Positions 9,442-53,544 are shown, counted from the first letter of the stretch. The stretch: DNA of 64,000 nt from Actinomycetes bacterium (GCA_021796455.1 JAKACA010000001.1:8110-72109); one strand, 5' to 3'. Translations and numbers: made by a program. Notes: generated from the sequence alone by a model not told the origin.

Positions 9442-11073
9442 ATGTCACACCGCATGGATGTAGAGCTCACGAGCACCCGCGACGACGAGACCTTCACCTG
9501 GCGGGTCGCTGGAGCCCTGCAACCCCGGGGAGTTGTCGCGGCGACCTTGCTGCCCAAGGGTGCCAAGGTCGGCGACGTCGTTCGTGTCGAGGCTGAGGTC
9601 GAGATCGACGGGATCACGGTTGTTCAGGTGCTGCCTGCCAAGGACAAGCAGGTGCCCTCTGGCCGTATCGAGATCCTCGGGACGAGAAAGCCAGTTGCGG
9701 GCGTCACCACTGCGCTTGCCGGACCGCAGGAACGCCGACGCGAGAGCCGCTTCTTCCGGGACGGCGACGACCCAAGGCAGGCACGCCCGGGGGGCGACCG
9801 GCGTCCACGCCGTGACGGGCCCGCGGACAGCCGTGCCAAGTCCCCCTCGTCAGAGGGCGACGCCCGCGGCGGCGAGCCAGCCGCCAGGGATCTGAAGGAT
9901 CGCACGGAGAGCGATCGTGCTGCGCCAGGTTCATCCTCAAGGCCAAGGCCGCGCTCGGATCGACCGATGAGCAAGGTCGCCTCCGCAAGGAGGGACCTTG
10001 GGGCGCGCAAGCCTGAGATCCCGGCCAAGCCGGTGTCTCGGGGACCAAGGCGCGAGGATGCTCCCCTGCCGCGTTCGGCGGGAGGCACCAGCTCGGGACG
10101 CGCGGTGCGGCCACCTCGCCCGGCGCGTGAAGCCGAGAAGGCGGGGCGCCCCAGTCGTGGCCCCGTCCGTCTCGAGGCTGGTACGAGGCACCGCGACGAG
10201 CTGATGGCGAGACTGCCGCCTGAACAGCGGGTCATCGCCGACCGTCTCGCGGCCGGCGGACTTCCCGCGATGCGCAAGGCGATCGCCGACGAGCAAGAGC
10301 GCGCCCTTCTCGAGGGGCGCCCTGCGGTCGCGGCCGACTCGATACTGGCTCTGGCCGAGGAGCTGCAGCCCGAACTGAAGGCCGCCATGTGGATGGATCG
10401 GGCCGAGGCAGCTCTCGCCAACCTCGATGAGCTGGGACTTCGTGACCTGCGCGCCACTGTCGTGGCTGCTGCTCCGAGAGACGACAGTGGCCGCGATCTG
10501 GAGCGGCAGCTGCGCGAGGGTCTCGAAAGGCGCGTCACCAAGCTCCGCGCTGACTGGGAGGAGCACCTCACCCAGTCCCTCGCAGAAGGAAGGGTCCTGC
10601 AGGCCCTCCGCCTGTCTGCCAGGCCACCGGAACCGACGGCGCGGTTCCCTGCCGCACTGATCGAGCGTCTGGTCAACCAGGTCGGAGCGGCGATGTCCGC
10701 GGAGACCCCCCCGGATCGCTGGATAGCGCTTCTCGACGCTGTGGTTGCGTGCCCCGTTAGGCGCCAGATCAAGCCGGCTGGGATTCCCGAGGATCCCTCT
10801 GGATCAGTCCACCGCAAGGCCCGAGAGGCGGCGGGTCGCGTTCCCGCGCTCGCGACCATGCTCGGCATGGCGATGCCCCCGCCGCCCAAGCCGCTGCCAG
10901 GCGAGAGGGTGACGAGGCCCCATCCCCCTCGTGCCCCGCGCCCCCTTCGTCCTACCCGACCGGGCGCAGGCAAGCCACCCACGGGTGGCGATGCCGGAGC
11001 TGCGGCGTCCTCGCCTGACAAAGGCGCTGTCCTCGAGCCGTCTGCGGGTCCGCCGCAAGGCGGCGCCCCTTAG
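9442..11073 (+). CDS. hypothetical protein with a small N-terminal domain, a long Arg/Pro/Ser-rich disordered centre and a helical C-terminal domain
   Basis: 543-aa ORF. The ordered-looking ends (MDVELTSTRDDETFTWRVAG...; DELMARLPPEQRVIADRLAAGGLPAMRKAIADEQERALLEG...) favour this strand over the antisense 465-aa ORF. Confidence 0.6.
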   Translation: MSHRMDVELTSTRDDETFTWRVAGALQPRGVVAATLLPKGAKVGDVVRVEAEVEIDGITVVQVLPAKDKQVPSGRIEILGTRKPVAGVTTALAGPQERRRESRFFRDGDDPRQARPGGDRRPRRDGPADSRAKSPSSEGDARGGEPAARDLKDRTESDRAAPGSSSRPRPRSDRPMSKVASARRDLGARKPEIPAKPVSRGPRREDAPLPRSAGGTSSGRAVRPPRPAREAEKAGRPSRGPVRLEAGTRHRDELMARLPPEQRVIADRLAAGGLPAMRKAIADEQERALLEGRPAVAADSILALAEELQPELKAAMWMDRAEAALANLDELGLRDLRATVVAAAPRDDSGRDLERQLREGLERRVTKLRADWEEHLTQSLAEGRVLQALRLSARPPEPTARFPAALIERLVNQVGAAMSAETPPDRWIALLDAVVACPVRRQIKPAGIPEDPSGSVHRKAREAAGRVPALATMLGMAMPPPPKPLPGERVTRPHPPRAPRPLRPTRPGAGKPPTGGDAGAAASSPDKGAVLEPSAGPPQGGAP

Positions 11074-28659: not shown

Positions 28660-29283
28660 TCACTTCTCAAGCGCCGCCTTGAAGAAGGCACGGAGGTGGT
28701 TGAGCCGCCGCTCGAGCTCTGCCGGAGCCATCGGGTCGCGCTCGAGCAGGGCCTCGAGAAAGGGAATGTCGGAGAAGTAGGTTGCCAGGGCCCCATAGCC
28801 AGTAAGAACCAGCTGTTCAGGGTCGTGCGCGCGGAAGCGACCGTCAGCGATCTGGCGCTCGAAGAAACCCACCGCGCGCTCGAGCATCGGCCGTACCGCG
28901 ACACCGAATTCGCCAGCCAGGCGATCGCCACCTTCGAGAGCTTCCCGGCGGACCAGGCGGACGAACTGCGGGTTCTCGGCAAAGAAGTGGAACCCCGCTG
29001 TTATCACACGGTCAACCTGCTCCCATCCGTCTCGCGGCAGGTCTGTCGCTTCGTTGACCCTTGTGAGCCAGTCCGCGAACGCCGCCTCCAGCACCTCTCT
29101 GTAGAGAGCGTCCTTCGAAGCAAAGTGGTGGAGAAGGCTCGGGCGCCGGATACCTACGGCCTCGGCGATGTCGTTCAGGGAAGTGCCGTCGTAGCCGTGC
29201 TCAGCGAAGCACTCCGTGGCTGCTCGTAAGATCGCATCGCGTGTGGAGCCGGGCGCGCTCGGCCGATCTTCGACGTCAGTCAC
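28660..29283 (-). CDS. TetR family transcriptional regulator
   Basis: Start trimmed to GTG 29283. The HTH is [48 protein letters not shown]. The track's 156-aa N-terminal extension overlaps the carrier-protein gene and is low-complexity. Confidence 0.88.
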
Positions 29284-29503
29284 TTTTGTGACGCTATCAG
29301 CAAGGCTAGTCGGCCCACCGGGGACGAGGCGGGCACAGTCCGCGGCGGGCGAGCACGTGAGGCGTCCGAGCGCGCTCAACTGAGGTGCCCTCGGGCCTCG
29401 CCGTCTCGGGACGCGCTCGTCGGGACGCTCTGGTACGGTCGCCTTCGAGCATGCGTGCCACAAGGGCGCGGGAACGTGAGCTGCCGACACATGGAGGGAC
29501 TCG
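29284..29503. promoter_or_regulatory. divergent TetR / carrier-protein control region with a 9-bp direct repeat
   Basis: TCGGGACGC occurs at 29406-29414 and 29420-29428 (14-bp spacing). A GGAGGG Shine-Dalgarno sits 6 nt before GTG 29504. An operator role is inferred only. Confidence 0.35.
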
Positions 29504-29767
29504 GTGTTTGACGACGACGAGGTGGTCGAGTTCCTAGTGGGGGTTACCGGCCTCGAGCGAGCGGACCTCGGGAGCAGCTTGTCCCTCCTCGATCTCGGTC
29601 TCAGCTCGTTTCGAGTGATGCAGACGCTCATGCAGATCGAGGAGACCTTCGGAATCGAGCTCTCCGACGAGGAAGTCGTCAGGTTTGCTTCGGCGCCGGC
29701 GGAGATCCTTGCTTCGCTCGTGGAAAAACGCGCCCGGGGCTCCAGCGCCACAGATCATGACCGATGA
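29504..29767 (+). CDS. stand-alone acyl/peptidyl carrier protein
   Basis: 87 aa. [33 protein letters not shown] has the carrier-protein helix II context, with Ser at the phosphopantetheine position. Confidence 0.75.
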
Positions 29768-31280
29768 CACGCTGGACCTGCTGGGACTGATTGGCCGCCA
29801 CGCGGCTTCGAACCCGGGCCGCGAGGCAGTCACAGATTTGAACCGCAGGCTCACCTATGGAGAGCTTCACAGCGAGGTGCGAGCAGTCGCCGGCCACCTC
29901 TGCGACGCCGGAGTCGAAGAGGGCGACCGTGTCGCGCTCGGCATGGGCAACTCCGTGGATTTCGTCGTCGCGGCTCTTGCGTGCGCGTGGGTGGGCGCGA
30001 TCTTTGTGCCCATCGCGAGCGGCGATCCCCCGGCGCGCCTGAGGCTTGTTCTCGAAAGCTGCGAGCCGCGCGCGGTGCTGTCACCACCGGACGTCTTAGG
30101 TCCCGGCGCCTTCCTCCGGATCACCATGGACGACGCCAGGCGGTCCAGCCGCCCATGCCCGCCGCCGCTGCCCGCGCGGGACCGACCGGCGTACTGCATC
30201 TACACCTCGGGCACCACGGGGTCGCCGAAAGGCGTCGTCACCGGCCAGGCGGCCTTTGCCGCGGCGACATCGCTCGTGATCGACGCGATGGGCATCCATG
30301 AGGCGACGCGCGCTCTTTGTGTCTCGCCTGTCCATTTCGTCGGGTCATTTGCCACTGTCTTCCCGATCATCGCCGCAGGTGGGACGCTCGTCATACCACC
30401 GAGGGATCAGCTCTTTTTGCCGCGGATGTTCTTTCGCGTCCTTGCCAGCGAGGAGATCACCCACACCAGCTTTTCTCCGACCTACCTGCGACTGCTGCTC
30501 GGGAGCGCGCAAGTCGAGCAGCTGGCTGCGAGCTCGCTCGTCACGATGGGTCTCGGCGGGGAGAGCCTCACGGTCGGGGACCTGCGCTCGCTCTTTCGCG
30601 CCGCGCCGGATCTCGCTGTGTTCAACCGCTATGGACAGACGGAGACGACCGGTATCGTCACCGCATGGCCGGTGCACCCCGAGAGCCTTTCGGGCAACGG
30701 CAGCGTGCCGATCGGGCGGCCCTCCAAGGGGAACTCCTTTCTCATCGTGGGCGACGATGGTTGTGTGATCGACGCGGCCGGTGAGGTGGGCGAGCTTTAC
30801 GTCGGTGGTCACCAGCTCATGGCCGGGTACTGGCGCGATCCTGAGCTCACGGCAGCCGTCCTTCGCGACGACGTCGTTGCTGGAGCGACCCTGTATAGAA
30901 CGGGCGACCTCGTATATCGCGATGATGCCGGCGTGTACTTTCTCGTCGGCCGCCGAGACCGGATGGTGAAAAGGTCCGGCGTCCGCATCTCCTTGTCGGA
31001 GGTGGCAGCCGCGCTGTGCGATCTCGAACCGGTCTCGGCCGCTGTGTGCACCCCATATGACGACGACGGCCAGCTCGCGATCGCGGCGTTCGTGACGACG
31101 CGTGGACACGCAAGCGGTCGCGACATCCGCCTGGCAGCTTCAGCGGTGCTGCCGGCGACTATGCTCCCCGATCGCGTGGAGATCGTGGACGTTTTGCCGA
31201 TGACCTCGGGAAGCAAGGTCGACGAGCGGGTCCTGCTGGCTGGTGCCGGCCTCACGCTTGCCCGCGAGGTAGTCACCTGA
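29757..31280 (+). CDS. stand-alone NRPS-type adenylation enzyme (AMP-binding)
   Basis: Core motifs LTYGEL, YCIYTSGTTGSPKGV, NRYGQTETT, GELYVGGHQLMAGYW, YRTGDL, GRRDRMVKRSGVRISLSEV and SGSKVDE. The start at ATG 29757 overlaps the carrier-protein gene by 11 nt. Confidence 0.88.
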   Translation: MTDDTLDLLGLIGRHAASNPGREAVTDLNRRLTYGELHSEVRAVAGHLCDAGVEEGDRVALGMGNSVDFVVAALACAWVGAIFVPIASGDPPARLRLVLESCEPRAVLSPPDVLGPGAFLRITMDDARRSSRPCPPPLPARDRPAYCIYTSGTTGSPKGVVTGQAAFAAATSLVIDAMGIHEATRALCVSPVHFVGSFATVFPIIAAGGTLVIPPRDQLFLPRMFFRVLASEEITHTSFSPTYLRLLLGSAQVEQLAASSLVTMGLGGESLTVGDLRSLFRAAPDLAVFNRYGQTETTGIVTAWPVHPESLSGNGSVPIGRPSKGNSFLIVGDDGCVIDAAGEVGELYVGGHQLMAGYWRDPELTAAVLRDDVVAGATLYRTGDLVYRDDAGVYFLVGRRDRMVKRSGVRISLSEVAAALCDLEPVSAAVCTPYDDDGQLAIAAFVTTRGHASGRDIRLAASAVLPATMLPDRVEIVDVLPMTSGSKVDERVLLAGAGLTLAREVVT

Positions 31281-31295
31281 GGTCACCTGCCAGTT

Positions 31296-32447
31296 GTGCT
31301 TGGCACGGCCGTGGTTCGTGTGGAGGTAGTCATCACAGGACTTGAGTGGCGTGACGCCGCGAGCGACGGAGCACCCCAGCGCCGGTTCTTCCAGAGCGGC
31401 CCGGCGGTGCGTCTGCATGCAAACGAGCACCCCTACCCGCCTCCCCCGGAGGTGCTCTCGGCAATCGCCGAGTGGTCGTTCGAGGCTAACTGCTACCCGT
31501 TCGGTAACGAGGACCCGCTCGTGCGCATGATCGCCGAGAGGGCCGAGGTCCGGCCCGATCAGATCCTGCTCGCGGCAGGATCGAACGAGCTTCTCTACCG
31601 GGCGATCGCGTCTCTTGGGGGGCCGCGCGCCGAGGTCGTCATCCCTTCGCCGTCGTATCCGACTTTCGCCGCCGCGCCAGGCGCGTCCTCCGCGCGGGTC
31701 GTACCAGTGCCCCTGCTCAGCACCGGAGCGTGCGACGCGGACGGACTCTTGTCAGCCGTCACCGAGCGCACAACCTGTGTCGTCGTCTGCAACCCCAACA
31801 ATCCCACCGGCGCGGCGATGCCCTCGGGTGCGCTCGAGGGCCTCGTGAGGGATTTGCCAGCGAGCGTCCTTGTAATCGTGGACGAGGCCTACTACGAGTA
31901 CACCGAGGCGTTCGCTTGCCGCGCTCGGGGTGCGCTCGACCTCTTCTCGTCGGGCCGCTCAATTCTGGTCACCCGGACCTTCTCGAAGTTCTTCGCTCTG
32001 GCCGGCGTCCGGCTCGGCTACGGCATCGTGCCGAGCGCGGATCTGGCCGCCGATCTTCGAGCCCACATCGGTCCCAACGCAGTGAGCGCCCTTGCCCTTC
32101 GAGCCGGGCAGGCGGCTCTCCGGGCCGAGCAGATCTATCTCGAGCGTCTGCGCGAGCAGAAGCAGGAGCGGCTCCGCCTTTGGCAGGGCCTTGCAGAGCT
32201 GGGATTGAAGCCCATGCCGACGGAGACGAACTTCGTGTGCTGCGAAGAACCCGACCCCGAGACTTCCTCCTGGCTGGCCTCAAAAGGCGTCAACGTGAGA
32301 AGCGGCGACTCGATAAGCGCTCCAGGGCACCTCCGGATCACTGTCGGCAGCCCGGAGAGCAACGAGCAGGTCATCGCGCTGCTGGCCGAGCGCGTCGTTG
32401 GGCAAAGCGCCACCAAGCGCGAGTCTCGGCATCGAGAGCCGGATTAG
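31296..32447 (+). CDS. class II PLP aminotransferase (histidinol-phosphate aminotransferase-like)
   Basis: LHANEHPYPPPPEV, VVCNPNNPTG and TRTFSKFFALAGVRLGYG (Schiff-base Lys). 383 aa. Confidence 0.85.
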   Translation: MLGTAVVRVEVVITGLEWRDAASDGAPQRRFFQSGPAVRLHANEHPYPPPPEVLSAIAEWSFEANCYPFGNEDPLVRMIAERAEVRPDQILLAAGSNELLYRAIASLGGPRAEVVIPSPSYPTFAAAPGASSARVVPVPLLSTGACDADGLLSAVTERTTCVVVCNPNNPTGAAMPSGALEGLVRDLPASVLVIVDEAYYEYTEAFACRARGALDLFSSGRSILVTRTFSKFFALAGVRLGYGIVPSADLAADLRAHIGPNAVSALALRAGQAALRAEQIYLERLREQKQERLRLWQGLAELGLKPMPTETNFVCCEEPDPETSSWLASKGVNVRSGDSISAPGHLRITVGSPESNEQVIALLAERVVGQSATKRESRHREPD

Positions 32448-32457
32448 GCTCGATCCC

Positions 32458-34503
32458 GTGCCCAGCGCCCCTAGTGCCAATTCCCCTAGTGCCAATTCCC
32501 CTAGTGCCAGTGCCCCTGGTGACAGCGACATCGAGCAGCGCGGCATAAATGTCGTTCGTGGCTTTGCCATGGACGCCCCGCAGCGAGCGAGCTCCGGCCA
32601 CCCCGGCACGGCGATGGCCCTCGCGCCGCTTGCCCACGTGCTTTTCACCCGCGTGATGAGCTATGACGCGGGCGCTCCCCTCTGGGCCGATCGTGATCGC
32701 TTCGTGCTGTCCAACGGCCACGCGTCGATACTCCAGTACTCGATGCTCTACCTGACGGGCTACGGCCTCACACTCGATGATCTCCGAGAGTTCAGGCAGT
32801 TCGGGTCCCGCACTCCTGGCCATCCCGAGGTCCACCACAGCGAGGGGATCGAGGTGACGACGGGACCACTTGGGCAGGGTTTCGCTCAGGGGGTCGGCCT
32901 CGGCATCGCGGAACGGTACCTGCGTCATCGCTTCGGTCCAGGCATCTGCGATCACCATACATTCGTCCTGTGTGGCGACGGTGACCTCATGGAGGGAGTG
33001 AGCCACGAGGCGGCCTCTCTTGCCGGGCACCTCGGCCTTGGGCGGCTCGTCTATGTGTTCGACGACAACCACATCACGATCGATGGCGCCACCGAGCTCG
33101 CAACCAACGACGACGTCGGCGCGAGGTTCGAAGCCTACGGCTGGCATGTTGTGCACCTCGGCGAGGCGGCCAACGACCTCGACGCCATCGAGTCGGGCCT
33201 GCGCGAGGGGATGGCAGAGGCCGACCGGCCGAGTCTTGTCATCCTGAGGAGCCATATCGGCTGGCCATCTCCCCACCGCACGGACACCAAGGAGGCCCAT
33301 GGCGATCCGCTCGGGGCCGAGGAGATCCGTGAGACCAAGGCAGTGCTCGGTCTGCCTGTCGACGCGGACTTCTACTCTCCCGACGATGTCGTCGAGTACT
33401 ACCGGAGGGCGGGTCGCCGCGGAGCCAGCACGCGCGCAGAGTGGGAGCGGCGCCTGTCACGCCTCGACGTCACCGAGCGGGCAGCCTATGACTTGTGCAT
33501 GAAGGGGGGCGGTGCAGCTGGGTGGGCCGCAGGTCTGCCGACCTTCGACGCAGGGACGAAGATGGCGACACGCAGGGCCGTCAACGTCTGCCTGAACGCG
33601 ACCGCCGACTCCCTGCCCGGTCTTGTCGCGGGCTCAGCCGACCTCACGGGCAACACCGGCGTCCATTTGAGCGCGGGTGAGGTGCAGGACCGCTCCCACC
33701 AAGGGGGCAATCAGGTGCATTTCGGCATCCGCGAGTTCGCCATGGCGGCGGTGATGAACGGGATGGCGCTCCACGGCGGCACGCTGCCTGTGGGTGGGAC
33801 ATTCTTCGTCTTCAGTGACTACGCACGGCCGGCTATCCGCCTCGCCGCCCTGTCGCGCGCGCACGTCATCTACTTCTTCACTCACGACTCGATTGGGCTC
33901 GGAGAAGATGGTCCGACGCACCAGCCGATCGAGCATCTCGCGTCGTTGCGCGCGATGCCCGGACTCAGGCTCTTGCGACCAGCAGACGCGAACGAGTGTG
34001 CCGCTGCCTGGCAGATCGCAGTCGAATCCGATGGCCCGACCGCGATAGTGCTGAGCCGGCAGGACCTGCCGGTCCTGGAGGGCACGGCCGAGAGGAGCCG
34101 TGGTGGAGTCGCCCGCGGTGCGTACGTTCTGTCGGATCCGCGCGACGGCTCGGAGCCTGACATCGTGCTCCTCGGTACCGGCAGCGAGGTGCAGCACTGT
34201 GTGGCCGCGTCCGCCGCGCTCGCGTCCGAGGGCGTCGGGGCGCAGGTCGTATCCTTCCCGTCGTGGGACCTCTTCGAGAGCCAGGACGCCGCCTACCGAG
34301 CCACTGTTCTCCCACCAGGCACGCCGTGCCTCGCAGTTGAGGCTGGGGCTTCTCTCGGATGGGACAGGTACGCTCAGGCAACGGTGACTATCGATCGCTT
34401 CGGAGCCTCGGCTCCGGGTGCGACGAACATGGAGAAGTTCGGTTTCACGGGCGCGAACGTCGCCGACAAGGCACGTGAGCTCCTCGCAGCGAGACGAGTC
34501 TAG
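32458..34503 (+). CDS. tkt: transketolase
   Basis: SSGHPGTAMALAPLAHVLF, the TPP motif CGDGDLMEGVSHEA, and GEDGPTHQPIEHLASLR. Start placed at GTG 32458, the first in-frame start after the upstream stop. The N-terminus then contains the PSANS repeats. Confidence 0.93.
   Translation: MPSAPSANSPSANSPSASAPGDSDIEQRGINVVRGFAMDAPQRASSGHPGTAMALAPLAHVLFTRVMSYDAGAPLWADRDRFVLSNGHASILQYSMLYLTGYGLTLDDLREFRQFGSRTPGHPEVHHSEGIEVTTGPLGQGFAQGVGLGIAERYLRHRFGPGICDHHTFVLCGDGDLMEGVSHEAASLAGHLGLGRLVYVFDDNHITIDGATELATNDDVGARFEAYGWHVVHLGEAANDLDAIESGLREGMAEADRPSLVILRSHIGWPSPHRTDTKEAHGDPLGAEEIRETKAVLGLPVDADFYSPDDVVEYYRRAGRRGASTRAEWERRLSRLDVTERAAYDLCMKGGGAAGWAAGLPTFDAGTKMATRRAVNVCLNATADSLPGLVAGSADLTGNTGVHLSAGEVQDRSHQGGNQVHFGIREFAMAAVMNGMALHGGTLPVGGTFFVFSDYARPAIRLAALSRAHVIYFFTHDSIGLGEDGPTHQPIEHLASLRAMPGLRLLRPADANECAAAWQIAVESDGPTAIVLSRQDLPVLEGTAERSRGGVARGAYVLSDPRDGSEPDIVLLGTGSEVQHCVAASAALASEGVGAQVVSFPSWDLFESQDAAYRATVLPPGTPCLAVEAGASLGWDRYAQATVTIDRFGASAPGATNMEKFGFTGANVADKARELLAARRV
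32468..32527. repeat. 15-bp tandem repeat CCCCTAGTGCCAATT (2 perfect + 2 decaying copies)
   Basis: Read directly. Perfect copies lie at 32468-32482 and 32483-32497. Variants follow: CCCCTAGTGCCAGTG, then CCCCTGGTGACAGCG. In the tkt frame they encode PSANS-PSANS-PSASA-PGDSD. Confidence 0.95.
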
Positions 34504-51912: not shown

Positions 51913-53544
51913 TCAGCTTCGATCCTGCGGACGGTCCGTCGACACCACGTCGAGGTTGCCTTCGGCATAACGGGCCCTCAGGACCTTCTTGTCGAACTTC
52001 CCGACGCTCGTCTTCGGAACCTCGTCGATGAAGGACCAGCGGTCTGGAACCCAGAAGCGAGCGACACGACCTTCCAGGAAGCCCTCCAGCTCGCTCGGCG
52101 AGATGTCAGCACCCTCGTTGAGCACAACACAGGCGAGCGGTCGCTCGTCCCACCGCGCGTCGGGGACAGCGACGACGGCCGCCTCGAAGACATCGGGGTG
52201 AGCCATGAGGGCGTTCTCGAGCTCGACCGAGGAGATCCACTCGCCACCGGTCTTTATGACGTCCTTGGTCCGGTCGGTGATGTCGAGATAGCCAAGGGCG
52301 TCGAGCGTGCCCACGTCGCCTGTCCTCAGCCAGCCGTCATGGAAGCGATCCGTGCTCGTATCTGCGAAGTAGGAGCCAGTCACCCAGGGCCCACGCACCT
52401 CGAACTCGCCGATGGTGCTGCCATCTCGAGCGGCGACGTTGCCCTGGATGTCCACGACACGTGCCTCGACGCCGAAGACGACACGGCCCGTCTTCCGGCG
52501 GTATGTCCACGCTTCCTCCCCGGTCGCGCCGCGAGGGGGCACGGCGACTGCGCCAAGTGGGCTCGTCTCGGTCATGCCCCAGGCCTGGATGACCGGAACC
52601 CCGTAGAGCTCGTCGAATGCACGCATGAGAGACTCCGGCACCGCGGCGCCACCGCAGACAATCGTCCTGAAAGATGAGAGATCCGAGCCGTGGGCCTGGG
52701 CGTAGCGCAGCACCTCGTTCCAGATGGTCGGCACCGCGGCGGCCACCGTGGGCCTCTCCGCCTCGATAATCCGAACGAGCGGCTCAGCCTGGAGAAATTG
52801 GCGCGGCATGATGAGATCGGCCCCTGCCAGCCATGCTGCGTAAGGGAGTCCCCAGGCGTTGGCATGGAACTGAGGCACGACCACAAGGGCCCGGTCCGAG
52901 CTCGAGATGCCAATCGTCGCCGTCGAAGTGCTGGCGAGCGAGTGGAGGTACGTCGAGCGGTGGCTGTAGGCGACACCCTTCGGGTTGCCGGTGGTGCCGC
53001 TCGTGTAGCACATCCCTGCTGCCTGGCGCTCGTCGAGCACGGGCCAGTCGTAACGCGGCTCACCCCGCTCGAGCAGCTCCTCATACGACATGGTCGCCCC
53101 GAGGCAGGAGGTATCTCCTTCTCCCACGACGACTACCTGCTCGACGCTTGGGCACTCGTCTAGGACCCGGCTGAGAGCGGGTGCGAGGGTGGCGTCGCAG
53201 ATGATGACGCGATCGCCTGCATGATCGATCACATAGCGCAGCTGTTCAGGAAAGAGCCTCACGTTAAGGGTGTGAAGAACGGCACCCATGGACGGAATGG
53301 CCAGGTATGCCTCGAGATGCTCTTGGTGGTTGAAGCAGAAGGTACCGACCCGATCGCCGTTGCCGATGCCGAGCGAGGCGAGGCCGGACGCGAGCCGCTC
53401 GGCGTTGAGCGCCACCTCGGAGAAGCTCCCTCGCCGGAAGGAACTTCCGTCGTAGGTCGCGACCTCGCTCCTGCCGTGCACCTGCTTGCCGTGCCGAAGG
53501 ATCTCGCGGACGAGTAGAGGGGCTTCCTGCATGGTGCTTTGCAC
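51913..53544 (-). CDS. fatty-acid--CoA ligase (AMP-dependent synthetase)
   Basis: MCYTSGTTGNPKGVAYSHRS, GWLRTGDVG and a C-terminal KTSVGKFDKKVLR. GAGGAGG lies 5 nt upstream of GTG 53544. Confidence 0.9.
   Translation of the reverse strand: MQSTMQEAPLLVREILRHGKQVHGRSEVATYDGSSFRRGSFSEVALNAERLASGLASLGIGNGDRVGTFCFNHQEHLEAYLAIPSMGAVLHTLNVRLFPEQLRYVIDHAGDRVIICDATLAPALSRVLDECPSVEQVVVVGEGDTSCLGATMSYEELLERGEPRYDWPVLDERQAAGMCYTSGTTGNPKGVAYSHRSTYLHSLASTSTATIGISSSDRALVVVPQFHANAWGLPYAAWLAGADLIMPRQFLQAEPLVRIIEAERPTVAAAVPTIWNEVLRYAQAHGSDLSSFRTIVCGGAAVPESLMRAFDELYGVPVIQAWGMTETSPLGAVAVPPRGATGEEAWTYRRKTGRVVFGVEARVVDIQGNVAARDGSTIGEFEVRGPWVTGSYFADTSTDRFHDGWLRTGDVGTLDALGYLDITDRTKDVIKTGGEWISSVELENALMAHPDVFEAAVVAVPDARWDERPLACVVLNEGADISPSELEGFLEGRVARFWVPDRWSFIDEVPKTSVGKFDKKVLRARYAEGNLDVVSTDRPQDRS

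Follow-up and report, generated by a model that had tools for sequence, protein, structure and literature searches.

What acid does a small carrier-loading cassette activate when its adenylation enzyme has lost the residue that binds an amino group, and what takes up the loaded product? This question is raised by a locus in a 64,000-nucleotide (nt) stretch of DNA from an Actinomycetes bacterium (GCA_021796455.1 JAKACA010000001.1:8110-72109; "the window" below means this whole stretch), whose host lineage comprises uncultured Acidimicrobiales/Acidimicrobiaceae metagenome-assembled genomes, such as GCA_027407775.1. A minus-strand TetR gene lies opposite three plus-strand genes, in the order carrier, adenylation (A) enzyme and HisC-like aminotransferase. 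On balance, and with confidence little above even, sequence comparison leads us to favour a module that would load a 2-oxo acid onto the carrier, with the aminotransferase converting a single carbon skeleton between its oxo and amino states. The evidence comprises a two-residue signature in the A enzyme that co-varies with the aminotransferase gene. Labels beginning with L and P denote related loci and proteins retrieved for comparison. The features of the locus are as follows.

28660..29289, minus strand: TetR-family regulator (PF00440 E=5e-18, TetR_C_29 E=9e-13)
29290..29503, no strand: divergent spacer with two copies of TCGGGACGC (sequence inspection)
29504..29767, plus strand: free-standing carrier of the 'PCP2' type, 87 residues (PF00550 E=7e-9)
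29757..31280, plus strand: free-standing adenylation enzyme of the nonribosomal peptide synthetase (NRPS) type, 507 residues (PF00501 E=1e-72)
31296..32447, plus strand: HisC-family aminotransferase dependent on pyridoxal 5'-phosphate (PLP), 383 residues (PF00155 E=1e-47)
32458..34503, plus strand: transketolase gene tkt, context only (gene calls and Pfam)

The adenylation enzyme and its two changed positions

An earlier sequence-only reading had described an 87-residue carrier with a serine site in LDLGLSSF, a 507-residue NRPS-type A enzyme whose gene overlaps that of the carrier by 11 nt, and a HisC-like aminotransferase 15 nt further on; profile searches bear out all three. The carrier scores 36.2 bits against PF00550, above the gathering cutoff of 20.8, and its predicted phosphopantetheine site is Ser35 in LGLSSF (codon 29606-29608), which aligns with the TS of its homologs. 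Its best NCBIfam match is PRK07081, at 27 bits under the cutoff of 72, and it is 56% identical to the L009 carrier, which sits directly upstream of the L009 A gene. The A enzyme matches PF00501 with 245 bits (cutoff 29.9) and TIGR01733 with 295 bits, slightly under the cutoff of 317.4. Its closest solved relatives are the NRPS A domains of LgrA, TycA and GrsA, and its 507 residues hold only AMP-binding and AMP-binding_C in Pfam terms, with no thiolation (T) or thioesterase (TE) domain.

The Asp235 that binds the amino group in NRPS amino-acid A domains is missing from this enzyme. The segment HFVGS was aligned by HMMER to FDGS and FDIS of the two LgrA A domains, which places Val195 (codon 30339-30341) at the Asp235 position. 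BLASTP against an approximate GrsA fragment also puts Val at 235, and no alignment places an Asp there, so the replacement of Asp235 by Val, first read by eye, is upheld. In the A5 motif, NRYGQTE aligns to NGYGPTE of LgrA, with Pro replaced by Gln294 (codon 30636-30638). The aligned LgrA proline, numbered 485 in chain 6mfy_A, corresponds to LgrA P483 because a second LgrA entry is offset by 2. The ten-residue code, taken at positions 235, 236, 239, 278, 299, 301, 322, 330, 331 and 517, reads V G A S G G R G I K, with Arg291 at position 322 (codon 30627-30629) and Lys487 as K517 (31215-31217). Positions 299 and 301 shift by three residues under BLASTP to the approximate GrsA fragment; the LgrA-based assignment was kept because both HMMER alignments support it.

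Alignment of the enzyme with its 120 best homologs (121 family members) divided the family sharply. Val occupies position 235 in all 12 closest sequences (identity at least 61%), and Asp in all of the other 109 (identity at most 55%); the two groups are called Val-type and Asp-type below. Only two invariant columns split the 12 from the 109 sequences, namely Asp235 to Val and A5 Pro to Gln (YGPTE to YGQTE), and the two changes co-vary perfectly among the 121 members. G236, G301, R322 and K517 are common to both groups.

Both changed positions are published determinants of alpha-keto-acid selection. Keto-acid A domains have a hydrophobic residue in place of Asp235 (PMC11253843, PMC13643306, PMC10316625), as Val195 is here. 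In addition, three papers describe Gly-Met in keto-acid domains where A5 has Gly-Pro, equate G414-M415 of StsA with LgrA P483, and assign to the Gly414-Met415 backbone carbonyl the contact with the 2-oxo group (PMC11253843, PMC7923214, PMC13643306). Outside these positions, according to the same papers and PMC10949194, keto-acid domains characteristically retain the cognate amino acid's code. The Val/Gln signature, in a code that is otherwise nearly identical, would therefore favour the 2-oxo counterpart of the amino acid, whichever it is, activated by Asp-type relatives, and the invariant Arg322 among Gly, Ala and Ser of the pocket hints that the side chain of this substrate may be anionic or polar. 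That the two changed positions are those picked out by structural work helps specificity prediction and engineering.

The aminotransferase and its place in the pathway

The aminotransferase gene follows 15 nt past the stop codon of the A gene if its start is the GTG at 31296; other candidate starts are at 31311 and 31320. The protein scores 234 bits against TIGR01141 (hisC), below the equivalog cutoff of 276.55, and its best solved relatives are HisC enzymes. Lys231 (codon 31986-31988) is the PLP lysine, and none of the NPNNPTG, VDEAY and LRITVG motifs is disrupted. All homologs of at least 59% identity come from Val-type contigs, where they lie beside A genes, and the next relatives, at 42-51% identity, belong to unrelated gene contexts. 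A housekeeping HisC was ruled out by the sub-cutoff score, the lack of a his-gene context and the confinement of the clade to the neighbourhood of Val-type A genes. The earlier suggestion that the A enzyme takes a non-amino acid thus gains a second, independent marker (A5 Pro to Gln294) and an aminotransferase clade found only beside Val/Gln-type A enzymes, and the narrower class of 2-oxo acids is what we infer.

Gene order follows the same division. Neighbourhoods were gathered by exact-protein look-ups, a scan of one genome per GTDB species (best 80 of 320 hits) and a tblastn census with partner proteins. At every Val-type locus examined (the window, L001-L006, L008/L009, L012-L018 and L099), the carrier gene is directly upstream and the aminotransferase gene directly downstream of the A gene; the 70-plus Asp-type loci that were examined all lack that aminotransferase gene beside the A gene. 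By neighbour joining, the Val-type enzymes group as a single clade, whose sister is a small Asp-type clade (L027/L044/L081). Of the latter, L027 and L044 share with Val-type loci the upstream carrier, a hydrolase fusion, a flavoprotein, MetA, MetY and a second carrier; each is without one PPTase (phosphopantetheinyl transferase) match in the census, and neither has the aminotransferase. Because of this strict co-occurrence, a single evolutionary event appears to account for D235V, the Pro to Gln change and the acquisition of the aminotransferase.

The cassette is a rare branch of a widespread amino-acid-loading family. The canonical Asp-type order is an alkanesulfonate-monooxygenase-like luciferase-like monooxygenase (LLM), ATP-grasp, MetA-like, MetY-like, flavoprotein, Amidohydro_3, A enzyme and GNAT. 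This locus is widespread in Acidimicrobiaceae and also present in the cultured Mycobacterium sp. E787, and members of the family are frequent among Acidimicrobiaceae of soil and peat. The Val type makes up 3 of the 80 best species-level loci (of 320 hits), and a metagenome scan with Val/Gln-specific patterns returned three loci, one of them already known; the Val/Gln variant is rare, or poorly represented in metagenomes. Both types can occur in one genome: L017, with a Val-type triad, and L081, with an Asp-type A gene, lie ~65 kb apart on the same contig (CAVXNB010000008.1) of an Acidimicrobiaceae genome. The A gene of L081 adjoins an asparagine-synthetase-like gene (N-terminal sequence only) and a gene for a 1023-residue protein.

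A pathway can be proposed in which the A enzyme would activate an acid with a 2-oxo group replacing the alpha-amino group, and would pass it to the phosphopantetheine arm on Ser35 of the carrier. The dedicated HisC-like aminotransferase would interconvert the amino and oxo forms of that carbon skeleton, most likely providing the 2-oxo acid by deamination of a free amino acid, and the loaded carrier would be used by enzymes encoded elsewhere in the genome. This supply role is slightly favoured over amination on the carrier because it has a direct precedent in quinone synthetase pathways, where an aromatic amino acid is deaminated and the keto acid then adenylated (PMC10316625). The locus would then be a natural example of an A enzyme that moved from an amino acid to its 2-oxo acid, with a dedicated aminotransferase gained.

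Several points weigh against loading of a 2-oxo acid supplied in this way. The residue after Gly293 of A5 is Gln294: the Pro is lost, yet it is not the Met of characterised keto-acid domains. Neither a ketoreductase (KR) domain nor a pseudo-Asub element, which are present in depsipeptide-synthetase keto-acid domains, was found in the A enzyme, and the cassette has no KR gene. No PPTase, acceptor, second carrier, hydrolase or other partner gene was detected by tblastn in the 64-kb window. The conserved substrate-binding Arg residues of the aminotransferase are compatible with transamination in either direction, because the Glu/2-oxoglutarate co-substrate needs them either way. Moreover, Val235 is also found in McyG, an acceptor of Phe and phenylpropanoids, and aliphatic residues at 235 are also found in hydroxy-acid-activating domains (PMC11253843).

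These last two precedents, together with the Gln that follows the A5 Gly in place of Met, would fit an A enzyme for another non-amino acid (2-hydroxy, aryl or aliphatic), with the aminotransferase acting on a different intermediate, such as a released product or a distant precursor. To our knowledge, the rest of the code also matches no characterised code. Nevertheless, we regard this explanation as quite improbable: the remaining code is near-identical to that of the Asp-type sisters, in the way that keto-acid domains keep a cognate code (PMC10949194), and the strict co-occurrence with a transaminase best fits an amino/oxo pair.

A different role for the aminotransferase, which we consider somewhat unlikely, is transamination on the carrier. 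The A enzyme would load a 2-oxo acid from primary metabolism, and the aminotransferase would convert it to an L-aminoacyl-S-carrier, as in the product of the Asp-type sisters. The Val-type and sister Asp-type loci have common partners (the hydrolase fusion, second carrier, PPTases, MetA/MetY and flavoprotein), and with downstream partners shared, an unchanged product is therefore parsimonious. The tight or translational coupling of the aminotransferase and A genes, with a 15-nt gap here and a 4-nt overlap in L014, also argues for it. PLP enzymes that work on carrier-tethered substrates include the MycA aminotransferase domain, BtrK and VinO, and the exosortase-A cassette presumably pairs a ligase and an acyl carrier protein with a PLP decarboxylase (TIGRFAMs; the profile matches obtained here are to the ligase and hydrolase models only). 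By contrast, no HisC-type enzyme acting in trans is known to us that carries out alpha-transamination on a 2-oxoacyl thioester, and a literature search on on-carrier alpha-transamination and the exosortase cassette found nothing relevant. Two changes in the A enzyme and the gain of a gene, all for the same product, would have to be explained by some particular circumstance, for example a shortage of the amino acid, and 2-oxoacyl thioesters are labile. Whichever direction the enzyme takes, the three small soluble proteins offer a simple in-vitro system for a trans transaminase on a carrier-bound 2-oxoacyl thioester.

Partner genes in sister lineages and related systems

The sequence-only reading had taken the cassette for an isolated orphan, a view that has to be given up: several Acidimicrobiaceae lineages conserve it as a module, and outside the window lineage it lies within ~10 kb of a recurrent partner set. 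In the other Val-type lineages, this set includes an Sfp-type PPTase, a second carrier that passes PRK07081 (93 bits, cutoff 72) with an adjoining AcpS-type PPTase, a protein of 560-600 residues made of two alpha/beta-hydrolase halves, MetA-like and MetY-like genes, and an NAD_binding_9 flavoprotein of ~600 residues. The halves of the double hydrolase match the exosortase-A-associated hydrolase 2 and hydrolase 1 models below threshold (73-97 bits). Among homologs of the hydrolase at L009:12937-14703, P0290 includes a fused PP-binding domain and P0279 (879 residues) fused GT4 glycosyltransferase domains; these fusions hint that the double hydrolase may act on carrier-bound groups and in glycan synthesis. 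Two further hydrolase homologs, P0243 and P0248, come from assemblies other than that of the window.

Some related Acidimicrobiaceae loci also encode a ligase of the PRK07080 family. The L103 ligase (402 bits, cutoff 357) lies between the hydrolase and AcpS, and in the Asp-type sisters L027 and L044 the ligase gene directly follows that of the second carrier. The genes, identified with NCBIfam, are as follows.

L103:11806-12702, minus strand: PRK07080-family ligase gene
L027:17317-18201: PRK07080-family ligase gene
L044:19743-20627: PRK07080-family ligase gene

The amino acid:[carrier protein] ligases (aa:CP ligases), which resemble aminoacyl-tRNA synthetases (aaRS), have PRK07081 as their carrier; the biological role of this system is not yet established (PMC9437257). 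A published neighbourhood analysis predicted that the system aminoacylates a cell-surface amino sugar and that a Rossmann-type redox enzyme modifies the attached aminoacyl group (PMC2922099). Consistent with cell-surface aminoacylation, polysaccharide clusters that encode a flippase, glycosyltransferases and a priming transferase surround some Asp-type loci (Jatrophihabitantaceae, L010/L021). Ligases of this type have reportedly been characterised from Bradyrhizobium and Agrobacterium.

Receivers of the acyl-S-carrier can plausibly be named because the sister lineages hold partner genes near the triad. Downstream candidates would be the fused double alpha/beta-hydrolase, the PRK07081-type carrier with AcpS, and the Sfp-type PPTase; the distant Asp-type relatives and the published neighbourhoods would tie these partners to cell-surface glycan genes. 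A joint reading of the whole, which we hold to be unlikely, would combine the D235V and A5 Pro to Gln switch with a HisC-type enzyme that aminates a 2-oxoacyl thioester on the carrier, feeding a system of aa:CP ligase and double hydrolase that may decorate a cell-surface glycan. If true, it would be an undescribed route to an aminoacyl-S-carrier.

The L103 locus differs in another respect. At L103:2355-5066 (plus strand), a 903-residue ATP-grasp protein and an 85-residue open reading frame (ORF) stand where other loci have Sfp, the carrier, the A enzyme and the aminotransferase, and the 903-residue ORF has a short TnpB-like match at residues 359-434. The activation module of the cluster may be exchangeable.

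Compared to known systems, the cassette enzyme resembles in its signature the keto-acid domains of depsipeptide synthetases (StsA/CesA, Vlm, HctE/F, CrpD, ClyF and the Dol15D KAL), which likewise have a hydrophobic residue at 235, a lost A5 Pro and a code near that of amino-acid relatives. However, it is free-standing with a separate carrier, has Gln rather than Met at A5 and a dedicated aminotransferase, and the cassette lacks KR, pseudo-Asub and condensation (C) domains. The A-T-TE quinone/furanone synthetases share with it a clustered class I/II aminotransferase, Val at code position 1 and loading without a C domain; we take TdiA/TdiD, AtrA/AtrD and RalA/RalD to be such pairs. In those synthetases the domains are fused, with Claisen-type dimerisation by the fused T and TE domains, and the substrates are aromatic, whereas the cassette proteins are separate, no TE was found in the window, the pocket has Arg322 with small residues, and alpha/beta-hydrolase candidates exist only as separate genes in sister genomes.

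The aaRS-like aa:CP ligase system (PRK07080/PRK07081) is approached through the sister loci, which have a PRK07081-type carrier, in L027, L044 and L103 also the ligase, and a Rossmann-type flavoprotein as in the published neighbourhoods. By contrast, the window has neither the ligase nor a carrier of PRK07081 grade, and loading would be by an NRPS-type A enzyme, probably of a 2-oxo acid. Likewise, the exosortase-A (PEP-CTERM type 1) cassette comprises an adenylating enzyme, a small carrier, a PLP enzyme and two alpha/beta-hydrolases, the last of which occur here in sister loci, where they match TIGR03101 and TIGR03100 at 73-97 bits against cutoffs of 168-203; related Asp-type loci lie beside polysaccharide genes. 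Nevertheless, the A enzyme scores only 184.6 bits against TIGR03098 (cutoff 592), the PLP enzyme is a HisC-type transaminase and not a decarboxylase of the ornithine/diaminopimelate (Orn/DAP) type, and there is no exosortase context. The locus thus ties free-standing NRPS-type A enzymes to the aaRS-like aa:CP ligase system and to exosortase-type paired hydrolases, both without an established role.

Like DltA/DltC, the cassette has a free-standing A enzyme and a small dedicated carrier, and JGI labels many family members DltA. D-alanylation of this type was rejected: TIGR01734/PRK04813 give 203-210 bits against cutoffs of 476-560, there is no DltB (MBOAT) or DltD, and Asp235 is lost.

The window lineage and its flanks

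In the window and the 86%-identical L012 and L016, the triad has moved out of the partner set and lies between the TetR gene and tkt. A rival explanation is a functionless remnant of a larger cluster, stranded beside tkt by rearrangement; the lack of any partner gene in the 64-kb window by tblastn speaks for it, as does the L005 contig, with an insertion-sequence element directly upstream and a carrier called at 76 residues. However, the three ORFs are intact with their catalytic motifs, and the arrangement has been kept across three species-level lineages or more, among them those of the window, L012 and L016. Moreover, in ratios of nonsynonymous to synonymous substitution (dN/dS), computed for window genes against L012 and L016 at ~14% protein divergence, the carrier gives 0.09-0.13, the A enzyme 0.19-0.20 and the aminotransferase 0.18, compared to 0.11-0.14 for tkt and tal and 0.27 for trmI. 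Because the values of 0.09-0.20 resemble those of the housekeeping neighbours, the three cassette genes are under purifying selection and not decaying, and a remnant is very improbable. The reading we prefer, a working module for a 2-oxo acid, would place the partners of the window cassette elsewhere in the genome.

The surroundings in the window are as the sequence-only reading had given them, with trmI and small membrane proteins on one side and tkt on the other. Gene calls span window positions 19757-41280, and the remaining ORFs of the window were scanned with Pfam. The minus strand upstream holds the pup-proteasome genes, trmI and a further three small ORFs; on the downstream side, the start of tkt lies 10 nt past the stop of the aminotransferase gene, with tal, pgl and glgE beyond it. 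The same aminotransferase-tkt junction is seen in L012 and L016. A functional link to transketolase was dismissed, as tkt follows the cassette in no lineage but that of the window, L012 and L016, and no tkt lies near the other Val-type loci. The reported lack of condensation, thioesterase, reductase, ketosynthase (KS) and DltB-like genes also stands: none of the condensation, thioesterase, reductase, KS and MBOAT domains was found by Pfam among the scanned window ORFs and gene calls, the other scanned ORFs being housekeeping or unrelated. A tblastn search of the window with 29 partner proteins gave no match beyond the three cassette genes and a FadD-like gene unrelated to them, and the L103 PRK07080 ligase as query found no match in the window.

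Membership of TetR in the cassette, as first proposed, is not sustained, since the gene is absent from the Val-type loci of all other lineages and heads its own minus-strand string of small membrane-protein ORFs. The protein itself is a TetR regulator, with both an N-terminal helix-turn-helix domain (PF00440, 65 bits) and a C-terminal domain (PF17938, 48.9 bits). It has 210 residues from a GTG at 29289, and an alternative call of 239 residues reaches 29379. Of the divergent arrangement first described, TetR and the two copies of TCGGGACGC were recovered; the spacer, given as 220 bp, measures 214 bp with the 210-residue start or 124 bp with the 239-residue call. The direct repeat lies at 29406-29414 and 29420-29428 and is partly conserved in L012 and L016, and no sigma-70-like promoter match was found in the spacer. 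The repeat was dropped as an operator candidate, its conservation among relatives being only partial. TetR is 98.6% identical between the window and L012 with a dN/dS of 0.02, and all neighbouring genes are 85-92% identical; this constraint is unusually strong for a local regulator.

A 15-nt tandem repeat, CCCCTAGTGCCAATT, occurs in 3.6 copies at window positions 32468-32521, after the aminotransferase stop and within the called N-terminus of tkt. It is missing from the 86%-identical L012 and L016 as an in-frame 45-nt indel, and because these two loci are without it, both the true tkt start and the nature of the 32468-32521 segment (coding or intergenic) are uncertain.

A second AMP-binding enzyme (PF00501 and AMP-binding_C) is encoded at window 51913-53544 (minus strand). 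It is 27% identical to the cassette A enzyme and looks like an ordinary acyl-CoA synthetase, and no carrier gene was detected elsewhere in the window. At window 9442-11073, long ORFs run on both strands (543 residues on the plus and 209 on the minus strand), neither of which matches Pfam. Finally, at L005:4693-7025, on a GCA_021839045.1 contig with an identical A protein, a DDE_Tnp_1 transposase gene and a DUF6788 gene lie directly upstream, and helicase and SSB genes replace the TetR/trmI side; this arrangement is either a strain-level rearrangement or an assembly join.

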